Source: an uncultured archaeon (lineage in GTDB: Archaea > Asgardarchaeota > Hermodarchaeia > Hermodarchaeales > Hermodarchaeaceae). From it: DNA of 64,000 nucleotides. This document shows, piece by piece, positions 1 to 32,033 of this stretch. The translations under genes were made by a program, and so were the position numbers. Every line of letters starts with the position of its first letter. The stretch's first letter is position 1. A model generated the notes under the pieces. That model saw nothing but the letters and a program-made list of their open reading frames with translations, made no database searches and had not been told where the DNA came from. The stretch covers positions 116,285-180,284 of the forward strand of contig CAYFXC010000002.1 in the NCBI GenBank assembly GCA_964347045.1, read 5' to 3'.

Positions 1-136
1 AAAAAAAATCCGCCGGGTCTTCATCGTTCCTTCCCCTCCATTTTGGCACTTCCCGGTCCAAGTTTGTATGGGTGGCATTGGACCTTTTTGGACAACGGAT
101 CCGGAGTTGTTGTCCGGTTACCGTGAAGACCCGGCG
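1..136 (-). ncRNA. Structured 3' element of unit B followed by an oligo-U tract (candidate 3' UTR structure/terminator)
   Basis: Perfect 13-bp inverted repeat CGCCGGGTCTTCA (11-23)/TGAAGACCCGGCG (124-136) encloses hairpins GGTCCAA/TTGGACC (55-84) and GGACAAC/GTTGTCC (90-115). A8 at 1-8 reads U8 on the minus strand. Confidence 0.65.
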
Positions 137-198
137 TCAGTCAGCGTCCAAGGTCCGCGTCCCTGGTGTTGCAATGTCAATACCTGTTGTAAGCGTGA

Positions 199-342
199 TT
201 AGCGTCGTGAAGTGACGATGGCGAAGTTGATTCGATCGCGGGGGGTGCCTTTGGGGTTCTTTGCACCTGTCACAGCGCGTTCTGTGACCGGCATTTTGGG
301 AATGATATTTTTCTTGTGTCCGGTTTCTTTCTTATTGGTCAT
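199..342 (-). CDS. 47-aa basic microprotein B, MTNKKETGHKKNIIPKMPVTERAVTGAKNPKGTPRDRINFAIVTSRR (not in ORF track)
   Basis: Hand translation, ATG 342 to TAA 199. SD GGAAGGTGA 6 nt upstream. Clear homology to the ORF at 698-838. Confidence 0.8.
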   Translation of the reverse strand: MTNKKETGHKKNIIPKMPVTERAVTGAKNPKGTPRDRINFAIVTSRR

Positions 343-402
343 TTTCTATCACCTTCCTGACGATGCAGGTCAAGTGTGTATAACCCTTAGATTGCCTATT
401 AT

Positions 403-484
403 TCGATGGGAGCTTGTCGGTGCAAAAATCCGACAAAATAATGAGAGTTGAACCATCTTTTGCACTAGTTAGTGCAAAATTTAG
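403..484 (-). promoter_or_regulatory. Conserved upstream motif block of unit B, including perfect palindrome TTTTGCACTA-GT-TAGTGCAAAA (458-479)
   Basis: Motifs recur at equivalent spacing upstream of unit A. IR TTGTCGG/CCGACAA (414-436) around loop TGCAAAAAT. Confidence 0.6.
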
Positions 485-519
485 ATTGGTAACGGTTTTA
501 GTTCGAGAAGGGGGTAAAC

Positions 520-700
520 CGGGTCCGCAGAAGCTCCAGGCCAAAGGAGTCAGAAGGGTAGTAGGTCCGTTGCCGGATCGCTGCTACGCCGATCACCCGA
601 CAACGGATGGAGGCGATTGGTGCTTGTGCAGACCCGAGATATTAGGCTGAGAGGAGGACCGGATGGCTTTGTAGTCACCATGGGGATTCCTCACAGTCTA
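520..700 (-). ncRNA. Structured 3' element of unit A
   Basis: Closing stem 520-529/627-636 (minus: CGGGUCUGCA/UGCGGACCCG, one U-G). Inner stem TCCGTTG/CAACGGA (566-607). Stem 643-700 begins at the stop codon. Confidence 0.6.
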
Positions 701-838
701 GCGTCGACTAAGGACCAGCATAACTGCGTACCGAGTGCGTGGTTTTGCAATCGGATGGGGGTTGCGGCAGCCAGCGATAGCTCGTTCAGAAGCCGACATT
801 TCAGCGATTTTCTTGTGTTTATACTTGGATTTGGCCAT
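698..838 (-). CDS. 46-aa basic microprotein A, MAKSKYKHKKIAEMSASERAIAGCRNPHPIAKPRTRYAVMLVLSRR
   Basis: C-terminal part of track ORF 698..1000. ATG 838 has SD GGAGGGA 7 nt upstream. Homologous to 199-342. Confidence 0.8.
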   Translation of the reverse strand: MAKSKYKHKKIAEMSASERAIAGCRNPHPIAKPRTRYAVMLVLSRR

Positions 839-924
839 TCTCAAATCCCTCCAATTGTGTTGTCTCCGGGATTCCCGGGGAGAAACCCCGTTGCATGTGA
901 AAGAAGGCGGCCGTTTGATAAGAA

Positions 925-1007
925 TCGATGGGAGCCAAGAAGTGCAAATCTTCTCGAAAGAAACCTGTGAAAGATAGTTTTTTTGAACCACATTATGCAA
1001 AATTTAG
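925..1007 (-). promoter_or_regulatory. Conserved upstream motif block of unit A
   Basis: TCGATGGGAGC (925-935), IR AGAAG/CTTCT around TGCAAAT (938-954), TGCAAAATTTAG (996-1007). Confidence 0.6.
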
Positions 1008-1136
1008 CTTTAAATTAGGAAGTTTTCCGTTTGGGTTGATTTTCACTATCAGAGTTTGTGAATAAGTTTTCTTAAGATTTTTTTGGGGTGTTCTGCGAAG
1101 GCTTTTGTGAACTCGGTTATAGTGTAACCTGGTGAG

Positions 1137-1661
1137 TTGATGATCAAGCAAGAAATGGAGCCGATGGCGGGAATACAGGCGTTACCGGCATTTCCGGTGG
1201 TTCTCGTTACTGTGCAGGATAACGTGATGACAGCGGCAGCATTTCATTTCTTTTCTTTTAACCCGCCGAGTGTGATGGTGGGAATTCGTCCACAGGCGCA
1301 TACATTTAAACTAATTTTAAAGAGTCGTGAATTTGGAATTAATTTACCTCAGAAGGAGCAAATTGATGTGGTTCGAGTTTGTGGTTCAGTGTCAGCGAGA
1401 GATGAAGATAAGTTCCAAAAAACAGGGTTGACACCAATGAAAGGAACAGTTATTAATAGCGTGTTGGTGGCAGACTGTCCGGTAAATTTGGAGTGTCGAG
1501 TGGTTCATGAGGTTCAGTTTGAGGGAAGCCATCGGTGGTTTGTGGGAGAAGTTGTTGCAGCCCATATTGCGGAGGATTATTCTAAAGATACAATGCTAAT
1601 GTATTGGGCTCGTGAATATCGTCGTGTTGGGGATGTGTTATTGAGTGTGAAACGCCGTTAA
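1137..1661 (+). CDS. Flavin reductase-like FMN-binding split-barrel protein
   Basis: PVVLVT...SFNPP..., EFGINLP, CPVNLECRV, GSHRWFVGEV motifs. Confidence 0.9.
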   Translation: MMIKQEMEPMAGIQALPAFPVVLVTVQDNVMTAAAFHFFSFNPPSVMVGIRPQAHTFKLILKSREFGINLPQKEQIDVVRVCGSVSARDEDKFQKTGLTPMKGTVINSVLVADCPVNLECRVVHEVQFEGSHRWFVGEVVAAHIAEDYSKDTMLMYWAREYRRVGDVLLSVKRR

Positions 1662-1736
1662 TGTGAATTAGTGAATGGAGAGAACTTTTCTTTGAAAGAA
1701 GTGTGGTGAAGGTGGAAATTAGGATTTGATTATACT

Positions 1737-2174
1737 ATGAATCCACTACAGGTGTTTCCTTTCAAGAACATGCCTAAAATGGTCGATTTAATCGCTGAAG
1801 GCGAAGTAGGTGTAGGCGCTGTTCGGTCTGCGACAGGTATGTGTGGGTTTGATTCCACTGAGGTTTCTGATATGTTAGCGTATTTGACTAGTTTTGGCCG
1901 AGTGGAAACGAAGGAAAATGGGTGGATAATCCTAAGGGCGGAAGAGGAAGCAGTATATGGGCGGTTTCGGAAGGCGTATCTGAAAGCGCCGATAGCTATT
2001 CTGTCTAATTTGTCTGAAGAAGTGAAATCGGTTGAACAGCTATCACAGGAAACGGGTCTATCAGTGGAGACTGTTGATCTGTATTTGCCGTTCTTAGTTG
2101 AGATTACGCGGCTAGGTGTAATTAGTCGATGTGCAACTGAGTATCCGGTGATTTGGTGCCAAAAATCAAAGTAA
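1737..2174 (+). CDS. Hypothetical protein, probable tandem winged-helix domains
   Basis: Two HTH-like segments (VGAVRSATGM...MLAYLTSFGRV; SVEQLSQETGLSVETVDLYL). Confidence 0.6.
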   Translation: MNPLQVFPFKNMPKMVDLIAEGEVGVGAVRSATGMCGFDSTEVSDMLAYLTSFGRVETKENGWIILRAEEEAVYGRFRKAYLKAPIAILSNLSEEVKSVEQLSQETGLSVETVDLYLPFLVEITRLGVISRCATEYPVIWCQKSK

Positions 2175-2469
2175 CTGATCGAGTTGTGATAGGATTTCTC
2201 TCGCTTTACCAGAAAGGTGAATATCTGTCCCGATTGTGAGCAGTGTTGTTTCGACGTTTACTTCGAGGATTTGCTCCTCGTGTTGCCTGATAATAAGAGG
2301 AAATATGACGACAGGTTTGACAGTTGCAGAGGATTACACAGGGAGAGTATCTGCTGGTTGGAGTTTAGCAAACACTTGATCCATGATTTCAAAAGGAAGG
2401 CTTTAACCGAACCTGAAAACTTTGAAAAAATGAATGTTTTTTATCTTTTAAAGCACCTAAGATTTTGCC

Positions 2470-2838
2470 ATGACGCGCGTAGTTCATTTTGAAATCGCTG
2501 TCGATAGCCCGGATCGAGCAATCAAATTCTATCAGTCAGTTTTTGGTTGGAAAATTGAGAAATGGGAAGGTCCAGTGGATTACTGGATGGCCGTCACTGG
2601 TGAAGAAGGTGTACCTGGAATTGATGGTGCCTTTCAACTTCGATCGGATGCTCCACAACCCATTATCAACATTATTAGTACTTCCAATGTCGATCAAACG
2701 GTTAATCAAATCGTGAAAGCAAATGGTTCAATTCTTCGCCCAAAAATGGCTGTCCCTGGAGTTGGCTGGGCGGCATATGCCAAGGATACAGAAGGGAACG
2801 TTTTCGGGTTGATGCAAAGCGATCCAGAAGCAAAATAG
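2470..2838 (+). CDS. VOC/glyoxalase family protein
   Basis: VVHFEI...RAIKFYQSVFGW...PGVGWAAYAKDTEGNVFGL. Confidence 0.92.
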   Translation: MTRVVHFEIAVDSPDRAIKFYQSVFGWKIEKWEGPVDYWMAVTGEEGVPGIDGAFQLRSDAPQPIINIISTSNVDQTVNQIVKANGSILRPKMAVPGVGWAAYAKDTEGNVFGLMQSDPEAK

Positions 2839-2909
2839 AATAGTTTAGGAATTCCAAGAGAAAGCGTTAAAGCTCCTGACTAGTTGCTCAACCTTCCAAT
2901 AATTGGAAT

Positions 2910-4514
2910 TCATTGCACCCGCCATCGTCGAATGAATATCCAGAGTATTAAAGCCATTATTATTAGAATACCAAGAGTTAGGATGAGTGGAGCTAGCCAG
3001 GGGTTGAATAGAGTTGGTGGCACTAATGTTATTGTGACAGTGATTATGTTGCTCCAAGGGCTAAAGAGATTGTTATTGTCTCGTGCTCGGACTCGAAAAT
3101 TGTAAGTTCCAGGGGGATGATTAGAAAGAAGTAAGCTTGTGGTGTTGACGTTCCATGTTCTATCGGGAATGTGGAAAAATGGAGTGGTATCCATTTGTAT
3201 TTCATAGATATCGATTGTACCGTCAGCATCTAATGCATTCGTCCATGATAGGATGAGAGACCCATAAGGATTGAGGATAGTTGGTTCTAGTAATTCCACG
3301 GGTCCGGGACTCGTTTCGCCATTGTTGCCAATTTTCACAAGAAAGCCATTTGTTGATTCGGTAAGCCAACCAGAGGTAATTCCTGAAAAATAGTGACCAT
3401 TATTTCCGCTGGCGAATCCGAAAGGTTGGCAACTTCCTGTTCCCCCCCAAGATCTTTCCCAGTTGAGTGCCCCTGTGACATTATAGTTGAGAAGATTTAC
3501 TCGGTATCCAGCGTCAGGATCCTCATATTCACTTCCCACATAGATGTTATCTTCAGTGGCGAAAAGGTCGATTCCTTCATGATTTAATCCGGTGTTTTTG
3601 ATTTCTTCCCAAAGCAAGATGCTGGTGCTATTGTATTTCCGCAAGAAGAGCTCACCGGTACTGCTGGAACTGAAAGATTGAGTGGAGCCGGTAACATACA
3701 CACTATCATTGTAGACATTTACAGCACGGGCAAGATCTTTCAGAGCTCCACCCCATGTTACATTCCAAATTAGGATACCAGTTGGGGAGAATTTGGCAAG
3801 AAATGCATTGTTGTCTGAACCGTCCCATAAATTTCCATAATCACCAACTAGATATACACCATCCGAACCAACAGCAATACCATACCCGCGGTCAACAGGG
3901 GCCAAGTCCCAGAGTTCAGACCAAACTTCATTTCCATCAAAATCAAATTTCGCGATCAGTGCATCAGCATCATCGAGTTGAGATCTCTGTATAATTCCAC
4001 CAACATAAACACCATCGATTCCTATCCCAATGCTTGTAAACCATTCACTCGGAGAATTCCCGAATGAGACATTCCAGAGTTGATTACCATTGAAGTCTAA
4101 TTTTACGAGCAAGCCATTTGTTCCAAAAAGACCACTAGTGGTCTTCCCAGCAAGATAGACCGCATCCATGGAGGTTGTTAAAGCAGAGGCAGCTTCATCA
4201 TATGGAGCTTTCCAAGTCTGATTCCACAGGAGTTCCCCTTCGACAGAATATTTAAGCAAGAGTATGTTTTGCTTCATATCTTCTAGGTCCTGTGTGGTCC
4301 CCGCTACATAGATGCCACCAGTGCCAGAAGCGACAGAAGAGAAGTTATCGTTTTGTGTTCGCATCCAAAGTAGGCTCCATGGGTCGTTTGGGTCTAAAGG
4401 TGATGCGAGAATGCTAATCGGTGGTTGTTCGGCAAAATATGATGAAGTCGTTAACACTAGCACTAGGAGGAAAATGATTAGAAAGGCTACACCCCGTGGT
4501 TTCAAGGATACCAA
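2910..4514 (-). CDS. Secreted/membrane-anchored beta-propeller protein with FN3-like domain and C-terminal TM helix
   Basis: N-terminal hydrophobic signal. About 7 repeats of YVxG...LxKxxxxGxxxWxxxW. LSWT...YEIQ...YNFRVRARD...SPWS. C-terminal TM with RRWR tail. Confidence 0.85.
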   Translation of the reverse strand: MVSLKPRGVAFLIIFLLVLVLTTSSYFAEQPPISILASPLDPNDPWSLLWMRTQNDNFSSVASGTGGIYVAGTTQDLEDMKQNILLLKYSVEGELLWNQTWKAPYDEAASALTTSMDAVYLAGKTTSGLFGTNGLLVKLDFNGNQLWNVSFGNSPSEWFTSIGIGIDGVYVGGIIQRSQLDDADALIAKFDFDGNEVWSELWDLAPVDRGYGIAVGSDGVYLVGDYGNLWDGSDNNAFLAKFSPTGILIWNVTWGGALKDLARAVNVYNDSVYVTGSTQSFSSSSTGELFLRKYNSTSILLWEEIKNTGLNHEGIDLFATEDNIYVGSEYEDPDAGYRVNLLNYNVTGALNWERSWGGTGSCQPFGFASGNNGHYFSGITSGWLTESTNGFLVKIGNNGETSPGPVELLEPTILNPYGSLILSWTNALDADGTIDIYEIQMDTTPFFHIPDRTWNVNTTSLLLSNHPPGTYNFRVRARDNNNLFSPWSNIITVTITLVPPTLFNPWLAPLILTLGILIIMALILWIFIRRWRVQ

Positions 4515-10213: not shown

Positions 10214-12361
10214 TTACCCAAGGAATTGGGTAGCGAATAGTGTGAACTTTTCCATGATTTCTTGTGTTATGCTTGGCTGGGTGGAAGTAATGGCTTCTTG
10301 GAAGTGTGACATATTAACAAGTGAGGCTTCGAGGTTTTTACGCAAAACTGCCAAGACTGCTTTACGGCAAACGTTTTGAATATCTGCGCCTGAGAACCCT
10401 TCGGTTACCAAAGCTAATTGATCTATTTCTACATCATCGGCTAAAGGCATATTCCGAGTGTGCACGGAGAAAATGGCTTGACGAGTTGCCAAATTGGGAG
10501 GGGGGGTAAAAATGAATATATCAAATCGTCCAGGTCGTAATAGAGCTGTATCAATCATGTCAGGGCGATTTGTCGCGGCTAAAACTACGACGCCTTCAAG
10601 TTCTTCCATTCCGTCCATTTCAACCAGCAATTGATTAACGATACGTTCACTAACTCGACTATCATATCCAGATCCACGGCGTGGAGCGATGTTATCAAGT
10701 TCATCAATAAATAGGATAGATGGTGCCGCCTGACGTGCGCGTCTAAAAATTTCAGCGATGATTTTTTCTGATTCACCCACCCATTTACTCATTACCTCTG
10801 CACCGCGGATACTGATGAAATTTGCCTGACTTTCAGTAGCTACTGCTTTTGCAAGAAGGGTTTTTCCAGTTCCAGGAGGACCAAAGAGAAGAACGCCTTT
10901 TGGAGGATTGATATTGAAACGGGAAAAAACATCGGGTCGACTAATTGGTAATTCGACAGCTTCACGTAACGCCTGTTTTGCCTCTTCCATGCCTCCAACA
11001 TCATCCCATCGAACCATAGGAACATCAATAGCAATTTCCCGAAGGGCCGATGGTTCGATAACTTGACGTGCAGATTTGAAATCGTTGGATGAAACAACAA
11101 TCTGGTTTATCACATCTGGAGGGACCTGCATTTGCTGTTCCTCGATTTTTGGTAGCATTCGCCGAAGCGCACCCAATGCAGCTTCCTTAACTAAAAAGGC
11201 TAAATCTGAACCCACAAACCCATAGGTGCCTTGAGCGATTTGCTCTAAATCCACGGATTCGTCAAGAGGCACTCCGCGTGTATGGACTCGAAGAATATCG
11301 TACCGCCCACGAGTATCAGGAACTGTAATGTGGATCTCACGGTCAAACCGGCCTGGTCGTCGAAGTGCGGGATCAACAGCTTCTAACCGATTAGTGGCCG
11401 CGAGTACAAAAACTTGATCTCGATCTTGAAGCCCATCCATAAGAGTCAAAAGTTGTGCAACAATACGACTTTCCATACCTCCCGATTCTCGTCTAGCAGC
11501 AATAGCATCAATTTCATCGATAAAAATAATTGCAGGCTTGTTCTTTTCGGCTTCCTGAAAGGCGTCTCTTAGAAATTTTTCGGATTCCCCGTAGTATTGA
11601 CTAACGATTTCTGGACCGTTTATAGCACGAAAGAAAGCTTCACTTTCTGTTGCAACAGTTTTTGCCAAAAGAGTTTTACCACAACCTGGAGGTCCATGGA
11701 GAAGAATACCACGGGGAGGTTGAATTTTTAATCGCGCAAATAACTCAGGGTGACGAATCGGAAGTTCGACAATCTCTCGTATTCGTGATATTGCGTCATC
11801 CAGTCCTCCTATATCATCGTAAGTTGTCGTAGCTATAATCTGCATTTCCTCAGGAGCCTCCTTTCGGAGCTGAATGTCGGTATTTAAATTTACGAGTACA
11901 TTACCAAGAGGGACCGTCTTCGCCACATAGAACTTGGCTTCACTTAGAGCAAACGCCGCTCTGCCAATTGCAATAATAGTATCCTTTTTGATAGGTTTGT
12001 CAAGAAGATTCGATTTTAACAAGGAAGTGGCTAACTCTTGCCGATATTCAATTTCTTCACCCTTGAGTGGGGTTAAAATTACACTCTGGGCAGGTTGTGC
12101 TTCGATGCCATGTAGCGTCACTACATCACCGATATGAACCCCTGCGTTTAGACGGGTTAGACCATCCATTTTAATGACATTCTGATCTTGAATACTAGGG
12201 TCACGAACCGCGAGGGCACATACGCTTTTCTTGCCTACAATCTCAACTAGCGAACCATCCGTGAGTTGTAACTGCGCTAACACGGCGGGGTCAATTCGTA
12301 CTGTGAATCGACCCACGTCTACGGCACTCGCTTCTACCACACGTACCGATACTACACTCAT
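10214..12361 (-). CDS. cdc48: CDC48/VCP family AAA+ ATPase
   Basis: N-domain plus two AAA modules: GPPGCGKT/IFIDEID and GPPGTGKT/LFIDELD, with RPGRFD fingers. Confidence 0.95.
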   Translation of the reverse strand: MSVVSVRVVEASAVDVGRFTVRIDPAVLAQLQLTDGSLVEIVGKKSVCALAVRDPSIQDQNVIKMDGLTRLNAGVHIGDVVTLHGIEAQPAQSVILTPLKGEEIEYRQELATSLLKSNLLDKPIKKDTIIAIGRAAFALSEAKFYVAKTVPLGNVLVNLNTDIQLRKEAPEEMQIIATTTYDDIGGLDDAISRIREIVELPIRHPELFARLKIQPPRGILLHGPPGCGKTLLAKTVATESEAFFRAINGPEIVSQYYGESEKFLRDAFQEAEKNKPAIIFIDEIDAIAARRESGGMESRIVAQLLTLMDGLQDRDQVFVLAATNRLEAVDPALRRPGRFDREIHITVPDTRGRYDILRVHTRGVPLDESVDLEQIAQGTYGFVGSDLAFLVKEAALGALRRMLPKIEEQQMQVPPDVINQIVVSSNDFKSARQVIEPSALREIAIDVPMVRWDDVGGMEEAKQALREAVELPISRPDVFSRFNINPPKGVLLFGPPGTGKTLLAKAVATESQANFISIRGAEVMSKWVGESEKIIAEIFRRARQAAPSILFIDELDNIAPRRGSGYDSRVSERIVNQLLVEMDGMEELEGVVVLAATNRPDMIDTALLRPGRFDIFIFTPPPNLATRQAIFSVHTRNMPLADDVEIDQLALVTEGFSGADIQNVCRKAVLAVLRKNLEASLVNMSHFQEAITSTQPSITQEIMEKFTLFATQFLG

Positions 12362-29698: not shown

Positions 29699-31120
29699 AT
29701 GACACGCGGGAAAAGACAGCTCAAACAAAAAGAGGATATCACTCAAGAGTTTATTGAACGTATCATTACCCGTTCTAGACCAGAAGACGATCACGAGGAA
29801 CTGCGGATTTTTCTTACTAATGTGCGTCTATTCATTAAGCGTGTTGAAGGTTTCGATTTAACTGAGGATGAAAAAGAATATCCGCCTCATTCACAATTCA
29901 CACATCATACCTTGAGGAAGGGACGAAGTACAGCGGACGGTTTGAAGTATCGATTGAGAACAATTGACCGATACAAGATAACCAACGTCCAACAAATAAT
30001 CAACATAATAGCATCAACCGCGGTTTCAAGTCCAAAAGGAAAATTAACTCTCCGACAGATACAGATAATCCAAGAACTACACAAAAACCCCCTATTACCT
30101 CAATACGAACTCGTACAGCGACTCTCTACAACTTCCTCAATCATTCGGAACGAACTAAAATTTCTTCGGCGACGTTTTTCGATGGGCATAATTAACAATT
30201 TAGATTACAATAAATTCAAGTTAGGACTATTTGAGATTGATTTTCGCACCATGTCCTTAGATGCCTCTGAAAAACTTGAAATGCATTATCGACGAACTCC
30301 ACCTCCATTTCTACGACGGATTAGTTTTGACCATAACTACCGCGATGGTTTCATTCACTATTTAATTCCAGATCAACCTTCGAGCCATCAAAAGCTTGCT
30401 GAACGGATTGCTTGGTTAAACTCAAACTTCTTACAGGAATCGGCTTGTTTTCGAACACATGGTTTTCGAGTTGACTTGTCATTTGAAAATTACAATATTC
30501 CCACCGGAACTTGGATGCTTGATGCAAATACATTTTCAGTCGACATGTTAGAATTCCTATCTCGTCAAAAACGTGATCAACCCCAACCGCGGGAACGTAC
30601 ATACACGAATCCGATTCACTTTGATAGGGTTGACTATATTCTTGCGTCTACCCCCTATCTTTTTGGAGAAAAGCAGCGTATTGAAGTTCGACAAAAGGTG
30701 TTAAAACGCCACGGGTACACAATATCCAAGAAAACGATTTGGAACCGTGAAAAGAAATTACAGCAGGCAGATGTTTTTTATCCGTCAGTTTGGTATGATT
30801 CCCCTGAGTTGGAGGAGCTTGTGAAATTCACTATAAACTGTACAAATAATGCACTCGAAAAGATTTACCGTCTTATTTCCATCCTACCATACACTTATTC
30901 GGTGCCAACGGACGTCGGTGTGACCTTCACGTTCCAACGACCGAGTCGATGTTCTTCGATAACTGGATTATTAACGAAAGCGTTTGACAAAATTGATGGA
31001 GTCTCAAATATTTGGGTGATCCGATATGAGCCTACATTCAGTCCACAGTTGTTTACCCAAGTTGTAGATCGATGGGATGAAAGTCATCAACGTTGGTTAC
31101 TACAAAAAGGCGACATTTAA
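29699..31120 (+). CDS. Large double wHTH/Lrp-like DNA-binding protein, paralog 2
   Basis: HTH ELVQRLSTTSSIIRNELKFL; LDYNKFKL; SKKTIWNREKKL. Confidence 0.75.
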   Translation: MTRGKRQLKQKEDITQEFIERIITRSRPEDDHEELRIFLTNVRLFIKRVEGFDLTEDEKEYPPHSQFTHHTLRKGRSTADGLKYRLRTIDRYKITNVQQIINIIASTAVSSPKGKLTLRQIQIIQELHKNPLLPQYELVQRLSTTSSIIRNELKFLRRRFSMGIINNLDYNKFKLGLFEIDFRTMSLDASEKLEMHYRRTPPPFLRRISFDHNYRDGFIHYLIPDQPSSHQKLAERIAWLNSNFLQESACFRTHGFRVDLSFENYNIPTGTWMLDANTFSVDMLEFLSRQKRDQPQPRERTYTNPIHFDRVDYILASTPYLFGEKQRIEVRQKVLKRHGYTISKKTIWNREKKLQQADVFYPSVWYDSPELEELVKFTINCTNNALEKIYRLISILPYTYSVPTDVGVTFTFQRPSRCSSITGLLTKAFDKIDGVSNIWVIRYEPTFSPQLFTQVVDRWDESHQRWLLQKGDI

Positions 31121-31130
31121 TCCGTATAGC

Positions 31131-32033
31131 TCATTTGTGTGAAGCGTGGATTATTGTGTAGAAATGGTCAACGAGTTGTTCGGCAATATTGATTTCAGTA
31201 ACTTGCTGTAAACCTTGCCAGCCGCTACTACTATTAACTTCAGTGACAACAGGTCCGTTCTTTGTTTCTAATATGTCAACGCCAGTATAAGCTAACCCAA
31301 TCGTTTCCGCACATTTTTCTGCGATATCGGCAAGCCCGGGTGAAAGGTGAAGGGGTTTGGGCTCGGCTCCTTGTCGGAGAGTTGTTTTCCAGTTATCCCC
31401 AACACGAGTCATTGCAGCAATGGCTTTATTTCCTATGACAAAAACACGGATATCCCGATTCCCGTGCTCAAGATATTCTTGGACATACATGACATATCGA
31501 CTTGCCTCAAGCGCTCGAAACACTCTTCGGGCAATTTCATGATCAGTTATTCGAGTCATTCCTACACCACCGGACCCGAAAAGTGGTTTTACCACGATAT
31601 CTTTGTATCGTCGAAAGGCGTGGAGTGCATCACGCGCATATTGAGTAATTGTTGTTGAAGGAACAGGGATTCCAGCTAATTCAAGTAAACGTAGAGTATA
31701 GTACTTGTCCACAGCTTTTTCGATGGCATGAGGGCGATTCATAAAAGGAATACCAAGGCGTTCGAGGCAGTGAAGAGTATCCATTCGCAAAATTACTTGC
31801 TCTAGGGATCCGCCGGGAACAGCCCGAGTGAACACGCCTTCAAGGGTGGTTAAATCTTCTCTTTTGAACTGAACACGAGGACGTTTTCCTCCAACTCTGA
31901 CGATGGTTTCGGTTACATCGAATACGACGCATTTTGTGTCTCGTCTCTGAATCTCACTAACAAGACGACTTGTCTCCCAGCCTTCAGGTTCCGTTGAAGC
32001 AACACCCACCCGACGAACTCTCCTTCGCAACAT
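31131..32033 (-). CDS. mptN: RimK-family ATP-grasp ligase, probable tetrahydromethanopterin:alpha-L-glutamate ligase
   Basis: GSLEQVILRMDTLH, KPLFGS.G.G, QEY, DIRVFV, GVDI, EVN. H4MPT gene context. Confidence 0.75.
   Translation of the reverse strand: MLRRRVRRVGVASTEPEGWETSRLVSEIQRRDTKCVVFDVTETIVRVGGKRPRVQFKREDLTTLEGVFTRAVPGGSLEQVILRMDTLHCLERLGIPFMNRPHAIEKAVDKYYTLRLLELAGIPVPSTTITQYARDALHAFRRYKDIVVKPLFGSGGVGMTRITDHEIARRVFRALEASRYVMYVQEYLEHGNRDIRVFVIGNKAIAAMTRVGDNWKTTLRQGAEPKPLHLSPGLADIAEKCAETIGLAYTGVDILETKNGPVVTEVNSSSGWQGLQQVTEINIAEQLVDHFYTIIHASHK

Follow-up and report, generated by a model that had tools for sequence, protein, structure and literature searches.

Basic microproteins with a structured 3' RNA domain and putative Lrp-type operator sites in a hermodarchaeal genome

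Introduction

The bacterial small RNAs SgrS/SgrT, RNAIII/hld and CpxQ have dual functions or derive from 3' untranslated regions (UTRs), and the arginine-rich motifs of lambda N/boxB and the ribosomal proteins that bind structure in their own mRNA are familiar small RNA-binding polypeptides. To our knowledge, the small proteins and non-coding RNAs of Asgard archaea, the closest known relatives of eukaryotes, are almost unexplored, and archaeal genes seldom have long, conserved and structured 3' UTRs. Among archaeal regulators, a described counterpart of what we discuss below is Ss-LrpB of Sulfolobus solfataricus (PMC1802622, PMC4046817), whose consensus box is TTGCAAAATTTGCAA (PMC1802622). Here we analyze two tandem units, A and B, each ~500 nt long, in an uncultured archaeon of the Hermodarchaeaceae (assembly GCA_964347045.1, 2.58 Mb, 89% complete). 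They lie at the left end of a 64,000-nt stretch of contig C2 (CAYFXC010000002.1, positions 116285-180284), which we call the window, and each contains a small open reading frame (sORF) for a very basic microprotein followed by a structured RNA domain. The initial annotation of this DNA had called them an undescribed microprotein plus cis-RNA system, and as a description this holds: about 60 homologs keep the frame intact, the ratio of nonsynonymous to synonymous substitution rates (dN/dS) is ~0.1, and neither the protein nor the RNA matches a known family. We therefore treat both as undescribed.

Two paralogous microprotein genes

The two units align end to end and have the same order of parts, as had been proposed: TTTGCAC boxes, the 11-mer GCTCCCATCGA, a Shine-Dalgarno sequence, the sORF, a spacer, a closed RNA domain of ~127-130 nt and a T-rich tract. 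The coding parts, numbered by window position, are as follows.

847-852, minus strand: Shine-Dalgarno sequence of unit A, GGAGGG
698-838, minus strand: sORF A, 46 amino acids (aa) plus stop (ATG at 838, stop 700-698), a type A microprotein
349-354, minus strand: Shine-Dalgarno sequence of unit B, AGGTGA
199-342, minus strand: sORF B, 47 aa plus stop (ATG at 342, stop 201-199), a type B microprotein

Both sORFs and their strong ribosome-binding sites are present where the initial annotation had placed them, and the alignment pattern that it drew from the two proteins holds residue by residue (41% identity; BLASTP E 3e-9). It had also argued for selection at the protein level, and the homologs bear this out. 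The frame is intact in ~60 copies across 18 genomes (family profile search), dN/dS is 0.10-0.14 at dS 0.8-1.4 within each of four subtypes (A, B, C, and D), and the ratio is low along the entire peptide. GGAGG or GGTGA stands 6-9 nt before the start codon in all 40 copies examined. A and B are thus real paralogous genes under strong purifying selection, each with its own ribosome-binding site. The automatic list of open reading frames (ORFs) gives A a wrong start and omits B, as had been noticed: its longest-ORF rule picks a TTG at 1000, resulting in 100 aa, and a 60-aa cut-off would lose B. Plus-strand ORFs at 617-970 and 212-451 are not accepted as genes, because selection sits in the minus-strand frames and the G-U pairs of the RNA domain also fit the minus strand.

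So far, the family is confined to one taxonomic family, where it was found in 17 of the 18 other genomes (14/14 in genus g1 and 3/4 in the sister genus g2), and a profile search of 381 other genomes of the phylum returned none. An exhaustive profile search of 1.84 billion cluster representatives gave 21 matches at E≤0.001; the closest homologs carry the NCBI label "Promethearchaeota archaeon." The present genome has seven copies, six intact and one pseudogene. The latter (C6:44748-44882, minus strand, locus L002) contains three in-frame stops (TGA, TAG, and TAA) and is not followed by an RNA domain. The A-B tandem is present in nine genomes of the genus and its flanks (flavin reductase, winged helix-turn-helix [wHTH] protein, secreted protein, and regulators) are partly conserved among relatives; therefore, it is vertically inherited rather than a mobile repeat. 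The suggestion that more tandem units might lie to the left of the window did not survive inspection of the contig: the next gene left of unit B encodes a secreted protein, and the closest further copy of the family lies at a distance of 6 kb (C2:110128-110268).

Family proteins are 40-54 aa long and share a Lys-rich N-terminal tail, the motif [M/I]-x3-E-R-A-x2-G-x-[RK]-N-P, a Pro-rich loop, a short hydrophobic segment and a basic end. Across 47 aligned members the isoelectric point (pI) is 10.2-12, net charge +4 to +12 and the grand average of hydropathy -0.18 to -1.38; the longest hydrophobic run is ~8 residues. C termini vary (SRR, SRH, SKR, SRQ, IIR, TRRV, and, in types C and D, SRRGSKW). 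The Cys of GCRNP is conserved in many members, with Ala or Gly instead in types B and D. AlphaFold2 (AF2) models built from the family alignment show a tail, a helix, an RNP loop and a second helix, with no strands, at moderate confidence (mean predicted local distance difference test score 72 for type A and 61 for type C). Foldseek found nothing below E 6 for the model in the Protein Data Bank (PDB). At E≤1, Pfam had no family for A or B; NCBIfam, PHROGs and PADLOC at E≤1 and PDB chains at E≤10 gave chance-level matches only (E 0.27-1), and the ESM Atlas had no usable match for the microprotein. A literature search on small proteins and structured RNAs of Asgard archaea and Hermodarchaeota found nothing relevant. 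Thus, the statement that no described family was recognizable stands for the protein, as it does for the RNA (see below).

A selected, structured RNA domain downstream of each gene

Each sORF is followed on the same strand by a spacer, a multibranched domain of ~125-130 nt closed by a 12-14-bp stem (P1), and a T-rich tract:

642-697, minus strand: unit A spacer hairpin, from the stop codon on (minimum free energy [MFE] -17.2 kcal/mol, z -2.58), kept in type A
515-641, minus strand: unit A 3' RNA domain; P1 pairs 637-627 with 529-519 and encloses the UCCGUUGUCGG/CCGGCAACGGA helix (P3), P4 and the P5 hairpin
139-198, minus strand: unit B spacer, its sequence kept among type B copies, its own fold not significant (z +0.44)
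9-138, minus strand: unit B 3' RNA domain; P1 pairs 136-124 with 23-11; contains the AUCCGUUGUCC motif, a GGUCCA/UGGACC hairpin and an invariant purine-rich 3' part
1-8, minus strand: U-tract 3' of unit B P1, extending left beyond the window; a probable archaeal terminator

The 3' RNA is real, selected, structured and on the sORF strand. The multibranch structure that had been proposed folds better than shuffled sequence (MFE z -3.83 for RNA A and -2.98 for RNA B), and its closing stem covaries. Across types A, B, and D (22 copies), 90% of P1 is paired, compensatory changes affect 8 of the 14 pairs, and the stem has a covariation score of 0.387 against a maximum of 0.159 when the partner strand is slid. 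Type A forms a three-way junction of P1, a 10-bp helix (UCCGUUGUYGG with CCRGCAACGGR), P4 and the P5 hairpin, with compensatory changes in 10 of 34 pairs (n=8 sequences). G-U pairs are consistent with the sORF strand only. Between species, RNA identity is 0.77 for B and 0.60 for A, compared with 0.51 and 0.34, respectively, at 4-fold codon sites. The distance from the stop codon to P1 is ~57-71 nt in types A, B, and D-ORF2.

Oligo-U is a known archaeal termination signal. Taking at least five U residues as oligo-U, unit B has one: U8 follows directly after P1 and runs on outside the window, the first base of which falls within this tract, as the initial annotation had seen. In types B, C, and D, most copies have a U-run after the domain.

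No Rfam 15 family was found for window positions 1-3000 (E≤10) or for five other loci (E≤1), where only chance matches far below the gathering scores appeared, and ARAGORN reported neither a tRNA nor a tmRNA. A genome search for trans targets of the invariant AUCCGUUGUC found the 10-mer 8 times (~5 expected) and its complement nowhere else. Several known kinds of RNA element were considered by eye and dropped: a hammerhead core, as no GAAA follows the stem; a C/D-box small RNA, as the C-box-like GAUGAUGU that precedes type D domains has no D box; a selenocysteine insertion sequence, as there is no in-frame UGA; and a bulge-helix-bulge processing stem, as P1 lacks the paired 3-nt bulges. A second ORF within the unit B RNA (GGAGGGG...AUG) was also dropped, its AUG not being conserved. 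The 3' region of the type E member (C2:110000-110130, minus strand, locus L006) contains GGTTCGACT, which is T-loop-like, and GACAAC, the complement of the GUUGUC of the other types.

The RNA domain as a probable 3'-end module

The distribution of the domain was followed with two covariance models, R1 covering all RNA types and R2 covering type D plus one hydrolase-linked exception. R1 matches genus g1 only, in 13 of 14 genomes (family search, E≤0.01), with none in the four genomes of the sister genus and none in 132 other genomes; 30 of its 31 sense-strand matches lie within ~330 nt downstream of a family sORF. R2 detects one extra conserved copy in each of 11 genomes. At the three loci checked, this copy is located directly behind a gene for a PF00144 beta-lactamase-family hydrolase with a C-terminal membrane anchor, a protein of ~400 residues unrelated to the microproteins. 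Its P1 has a wholly different sequence and still pairs, and the hydrolase stop codon is only 3-10 nt from the RNA. In the present genome the hydrolase gene occupies C23:10534-11748 and the RNA 11767-11936. The same locus (C23:9390-11936, plus strand, L040) has a regulator paralog (see below), the hydrolase gene and the D-like RNA module in a row on one strand.

Elsewhere in the family the 3' structure is graded. Type C ends in just a 17-bp hairpin with YCGUUGUGG and then a U-run, and members from the sister genus end in a plain GC hairpin and a U-run. Together, the RNA copy behind the hydrolase gene and these graded structures argue that the domain behaves like a transferable 3'-end module that does not require the sORF in cis.

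At the type D locus (C5:123154-123610, plus strand; loci L007, L071, and L082), two sORFs precede one RNA domain. The first encodes a 45-aa member ending in SRRGSKW. The second is a conserved mini-ORF of 26-28 aa (ending in NGSNKDYFVYSLILSRR and a stop) that resembles the C-terminal half of the family, and in 8 of 10 loci 57-61 nt separate its end from the RNA. A PF00144 hydrolase paralog is divergently upstream of the type D locus in 8 of 11 genomes.

Putative operator and promoter elements

Conserved motifs upstream of each sORF had been seen in the initial annotation, which assigned them no role; they are present, and we read them as an Lrp-type operator and a core promoter:

995-1001, minus strand: distal TTTGCA box of unit A (Lrp-type half-site), directly visible in the sequence
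942-948, minus strand: proximal TTTGCAC box of unit A, 6 nt upstream of the GCTCCC element
917-935, minus strand: putative core promoter of unit A, GCTCCCATCGA (935-925) abutting the TATA-like TTCTTATC
458-479, minus strand: predicted operator palindrome of unit B, TTTTGCAC-N6-GTGCAAAA (compare the Ss-LrpB consensus box, PMC1802622)
420-426, minus strand: proximal TTTGCAC box of unit B
395-413, minus strand: putative core promoter of unit B, GCTCCCATCGA (413-403) abutting the TATA-like AATAATAG

TTTGCAC boxes are common to types A, B, E, and a few others. In type B they form the palindrome TTGCAC-N6-GTGCAA, whose half-sites are invariant in 10 loci while the spacer sequence varies. Its pentamers TTGCA and TGCAA, which are 8 nt apart, match those of the Ss-LrpB box (PMC1802622), where the spacer is 5 bp; as expected of an Lrp-type operator, the palindrome is near a gene for an AsnC-type helix-turn-helix (HTH) protein. 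GCTCCCATCGA itself has another box 6-7 nt upstream of it and adjoins an A/T-rich, TATA-like box that lies ~45-70 nt upstream of the start codon. Many genomes keep the exact 11-mer upstream of A, B, E, and related members, and the stretch between the RNA of A and the start of B is 71% identical between species. These features point to a promoter composed of Lrp-type half-sites and GCTCCCATCGA beside a TATA-like box. A genome scan for TTGCAY-N(4-8)-RTGCAA gave 8 matches, little above shuffled sequence, and revealed no wider regulon. Types C and D carry different upstream palindromes.

Just left of the window are two paralogous genes (C2:113252-114244 and 114351-115424), each encoding two AsnC-type HTH domains. 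Proteins of this build are 330-357 aa long; Pfam recognizes a doubled HTH_AsnC/HTH_24 and no RAM ligand domain. The genome has 14 such paralogs, several of which adjoin microprotein genes or genes with the same promoter or RNA motif. Regulator paralogs accompany the A-B tandem in all seven other genomes for which 13-kb stretches were compared, some of them immediately up- or downstream on the same strand. With the C2 cluster excluded, 4 of 7 independent features have one of the remaining 12 paralogs within 2.5 kb, although such paralog windows cover 2.3% of the genome (P ~1e-5, a rough estimate). These four are the B2 sORF, the hydrolase 3' RNA, a AUCCGUUGUC hairpin behind a LamG-like gene and the gene for a 79-aa membrane protein. 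We infer that the flanking regulators bind the half-sites.

Two of these loci are observations in their own right. At C13:~31075-31530 (minus strand), the gene for an unrelated 79-aa protein with an N-terminal membrane helix shares the promoter module, with TTTGCAC-type boxes and GCTCCCGTCGA, and also the CAATTGGAGGGATTTGA leader that comes after it; this gene is directly downstream of a regulator paralog. At C30:12900-13010 (plus strand, locus L037), a GC-rich hairpin with AUCCGUUGUC and a U-run lies behind the gene for a LamG-like, C-terminally anchored protein, with three regulator paralogs within less than 4 kb.

Neighboring genes

To the right of the two units, the window contains the following genes.

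1137-1661, plus strand: flavin reductase-like gene
1737-2174, plus strand: wHTH protein gene
2470-2838, plus strand: glyoxalase/bleomycin-resistance-fold gene
4514-2910, minus strand: gene for a 534-aa probable surface protein with N- and C-terminal hydrophobic segments

A working model and its alternatives

The reading that we favor, with a probability of about one half, is that of Lrp-regulated microproteins that probably bind nucleic acid, each encoded together with a cis-acting 3'-end RNA module. A and B would be separate tandem single-gene transcription units, each making a very basic protein of 46-47 residues. The flanking Lrp/AsnC-type proteins would turn the units on or off by binding the half-sites, with GCTCCCATCGA and the A/T box serving as a core promoter of a transcription factor B recognition element and a TATA box (BRE/TATA). 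The RNA domain would be a 3' UTR acting in cis: together with the U-tract it would set the 3' end, and it would shield the mRNA from 3'-to-5' decay. The protein, with its Lys-rich tail, helix, invariant RNP loop and second helix, probably works by binding nucleic acid. Two of the mechanisms listed in the initial annotation fit this model: a nucleic-acid-binding peptide is compatible with the high charge and pI, and an unusually stable mRNA is compatible with an RNA that acts as a transferable 3'-end module. The two others, a terminal arrest peptide and a precursor of a ribosomally synthesized and post-translationally modified peptide (RiPP), found no support, for reasons given below.

Several points weigh against this model. 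Unit A has only a weak T-run after P1 (GGUUUACC). Types C and D and the sister-genus members lack TTTGCAC boxes and have no regulator gene within 1.5 kb, and synteny among close relatives is not independent evidence. We infer transcript ends, translation and promoter use alike, and the argument for nucleic-acid binding draws on composition and a likeness to the HU arm that falls short of significance (see below). Finally, a ~130-nt multibranched domain with the invariant loops UCCGUUGUC, CCUCUUGG, UGCCACCC, and GGGAAGUGCC far exceeds what a terminator or a decay block needs, and the loop sequences therefore suggest a specific binding partner.

On the one hand, that partner might be the peptide itself. 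In such a specific ribonucleoprotein, the basic peptide would bind the conserved loops, feeding back on its own mRNA, forming a stable particle after the RNA has been cut from the mRNA, or acting on other module-bearing mRNAs such as that of the hydrolase. We entertain this tentatively, as a less likely reading: the link between sORF and RNA is kept in each paralog lineage despite ~40% identity, the invariant blocks exceed the needs of base pairing, conservation of the RNA is far beyond what neutrality predicts, the peptides are strongly basic, and the type D mini-ORF retains the C-terminal half only, at a near-constant distance before the RNA. On the other hand, the protein occurs without the RNA domain in type C, in D-ORF1 and in the sister genus, and the match between RNA subtypes and peptide subtypes is equally expected from common descent. 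An extended form, in which the microproteins and the UCCGUUGUC-bearing module would make up a lineage-specific post-transcriptional circuit under Lrp-type control, the peptides recognizing the module in their own and other mRNAs (e.g., that of the hydrolase) and setting stability or translation, is doubtful; if true, it would add to archaea a type of small-protein/3'-UTR regulon not yet described there. The microproteins might instead bind the adjacent double AsnC/Lrp-type proteins as modulators or co-factors, replacing a small-molecule effector rather than being mere targets. Both families are expanded in one genome (14 regulator paralogs and 6-7 microprotein genes), they are repeatedly adjacent, the regulators lack a recognized RAM domain, and a regulator of the same build is near the distant member P0018 in two other assemblies. 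Nevertheless, we consider this improbable, since ordinary regulator-target linkage explains the adjacency equally well, the promoters bear Lrp-type operator sites, and regulators also adjoin genes outside the family (those for the hydrolase, the 79-aa membrane protein and the LamG-like protein).

Two further alternatives have, in our view, very little going for them. If the sORFs were cis-regulatory, the downstream RNA would be remodeled when a ribosome stalled or terminated at the hydrophobic-SRR-stop end, and termination or a gene further downstream would be controlled in this way. This would accord with the constant stop-to-P1 distance, with a type A structure that begins at the stop codon and with the C-terminal remnant in the mini-ORF. 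However, purifying selection acts on the whole peptide and not on its end alone, and the C terminus is variable, which also disfavors the arrest peptide of the initial annotation; the domain closes with a U-tract, after which comes either the next promoter or an unrelated, non-conserved gene; and the same RNA occurs behind the hydrolase gene at a much shorter distance from the stop. Toxins (type I toxin-antitoxin-like or membrane-active) or RiPP precursors are equally far from our expectation. The family is multi-copy and lineage-specific and includes a pseudogene, many members keep the Cys of GCRNP, and a subtilase gene is 3.4 kb away. Yet the peptides are hydrophilic, their hydrophobic stretches falling short of the ~18 or more residues of a type I toxin helix, PADLOC gave no match, and synteny is kept vertically. 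The Cys is replaced in types B and D, an S8 subtilase is beside the cassette in only one of seven relatives, and selection spans the whole peptide without a leader/core conservation pattern. The neighbors kept across seven genomes are the regulators, the flavin reductase, the wHTH protein, and the secreted protein, with no conserved modifying enzyme among them.

Significance and comparison with known systems

Each of the two would represent a complete and compact expression unit: a 46-codon gene with its ribosome-binding site, a putative operator and core promoter in front of it, and a selected, elaborate 3' UTR domain of ~130 nt behind. Such a unit occurs 5-7 times per genome and is linked to a family of Lrp/AsnC-type regulators. 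With the module also found behind unrelated genes, archaeal mRNA 3'-end biology becomes open to testing, and the peptides are small enough for chemical synthesis, which makes binding tests cheap. Should the RNA be a mere stabilizer and the proteins generic polyanion binders, what remains is a well-annotated orphan family of local interest.

Among known proteins, the arm of HU/IHF (PF00216) is the nearest in appearance. Both are basic, and the E-R-A-x4-R-N-P of the microproteins is spaced as in the KERAARTGRNP of E. coli HU-beta; hhalign places microprotein columns 14-43 on HU residues 47-76, which is exactly the arm, albeit with a probability of 3.9% and an E-value of 0.011 for one comparison. 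The microproteins do not share the T-G turn and the second strand of the arm signature R-x-x-R-x-G-R-N-P-x-T-G. Whereas HU has ~90 aa and a helical dimerization body, the microproteins are half that length and have no body, and whereas the HU arm is a beta-ribbon, AF2 predicts helices. A six-frame search of the whole genome with PF00216 matched no microprotein. We therefore take the likeness for a resemblance and not for membership in HU/IHF, because the hhalign match is not significant, PF00216 does not match and helices are predicted instead of a beta-ribbon.

Like Ss-LrpB (PMC1802622, PMC4046817), the putative regulation involves a neighboring gene for an AsnC-type HTH protein and several sites per control region. 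The differences from Ss-LrpB are a spacer of 8 bp instead of 5 bp, a regulator of 330-357 aa in which two HTH domains are fused and no RAM domain is recognized, microprotein genes as the targets, and binding that is predicted.

Small basic RNA-binding peptides and self-binding ribosomal proteins are alike in that a short basic polypeptide is encoded beside a structured RNA on the same transcript. They differ in that there is no sequence relation, the microprotein RNA would be in the 3' UTR and not in a leader, each genome has 5-7 putatively regulated paralogs, and the binding is putative. As for SgrS/SgrT, RNAIII/hld, and CpxQ, our units belong to an archaeal lineage, show no homology to them, and have conserved single-stranded motifs for which no base-pairing target was found; what they would have in common with these bacterial RNAs is a translated sORF joined to a conserved structured RNA on one transcript.

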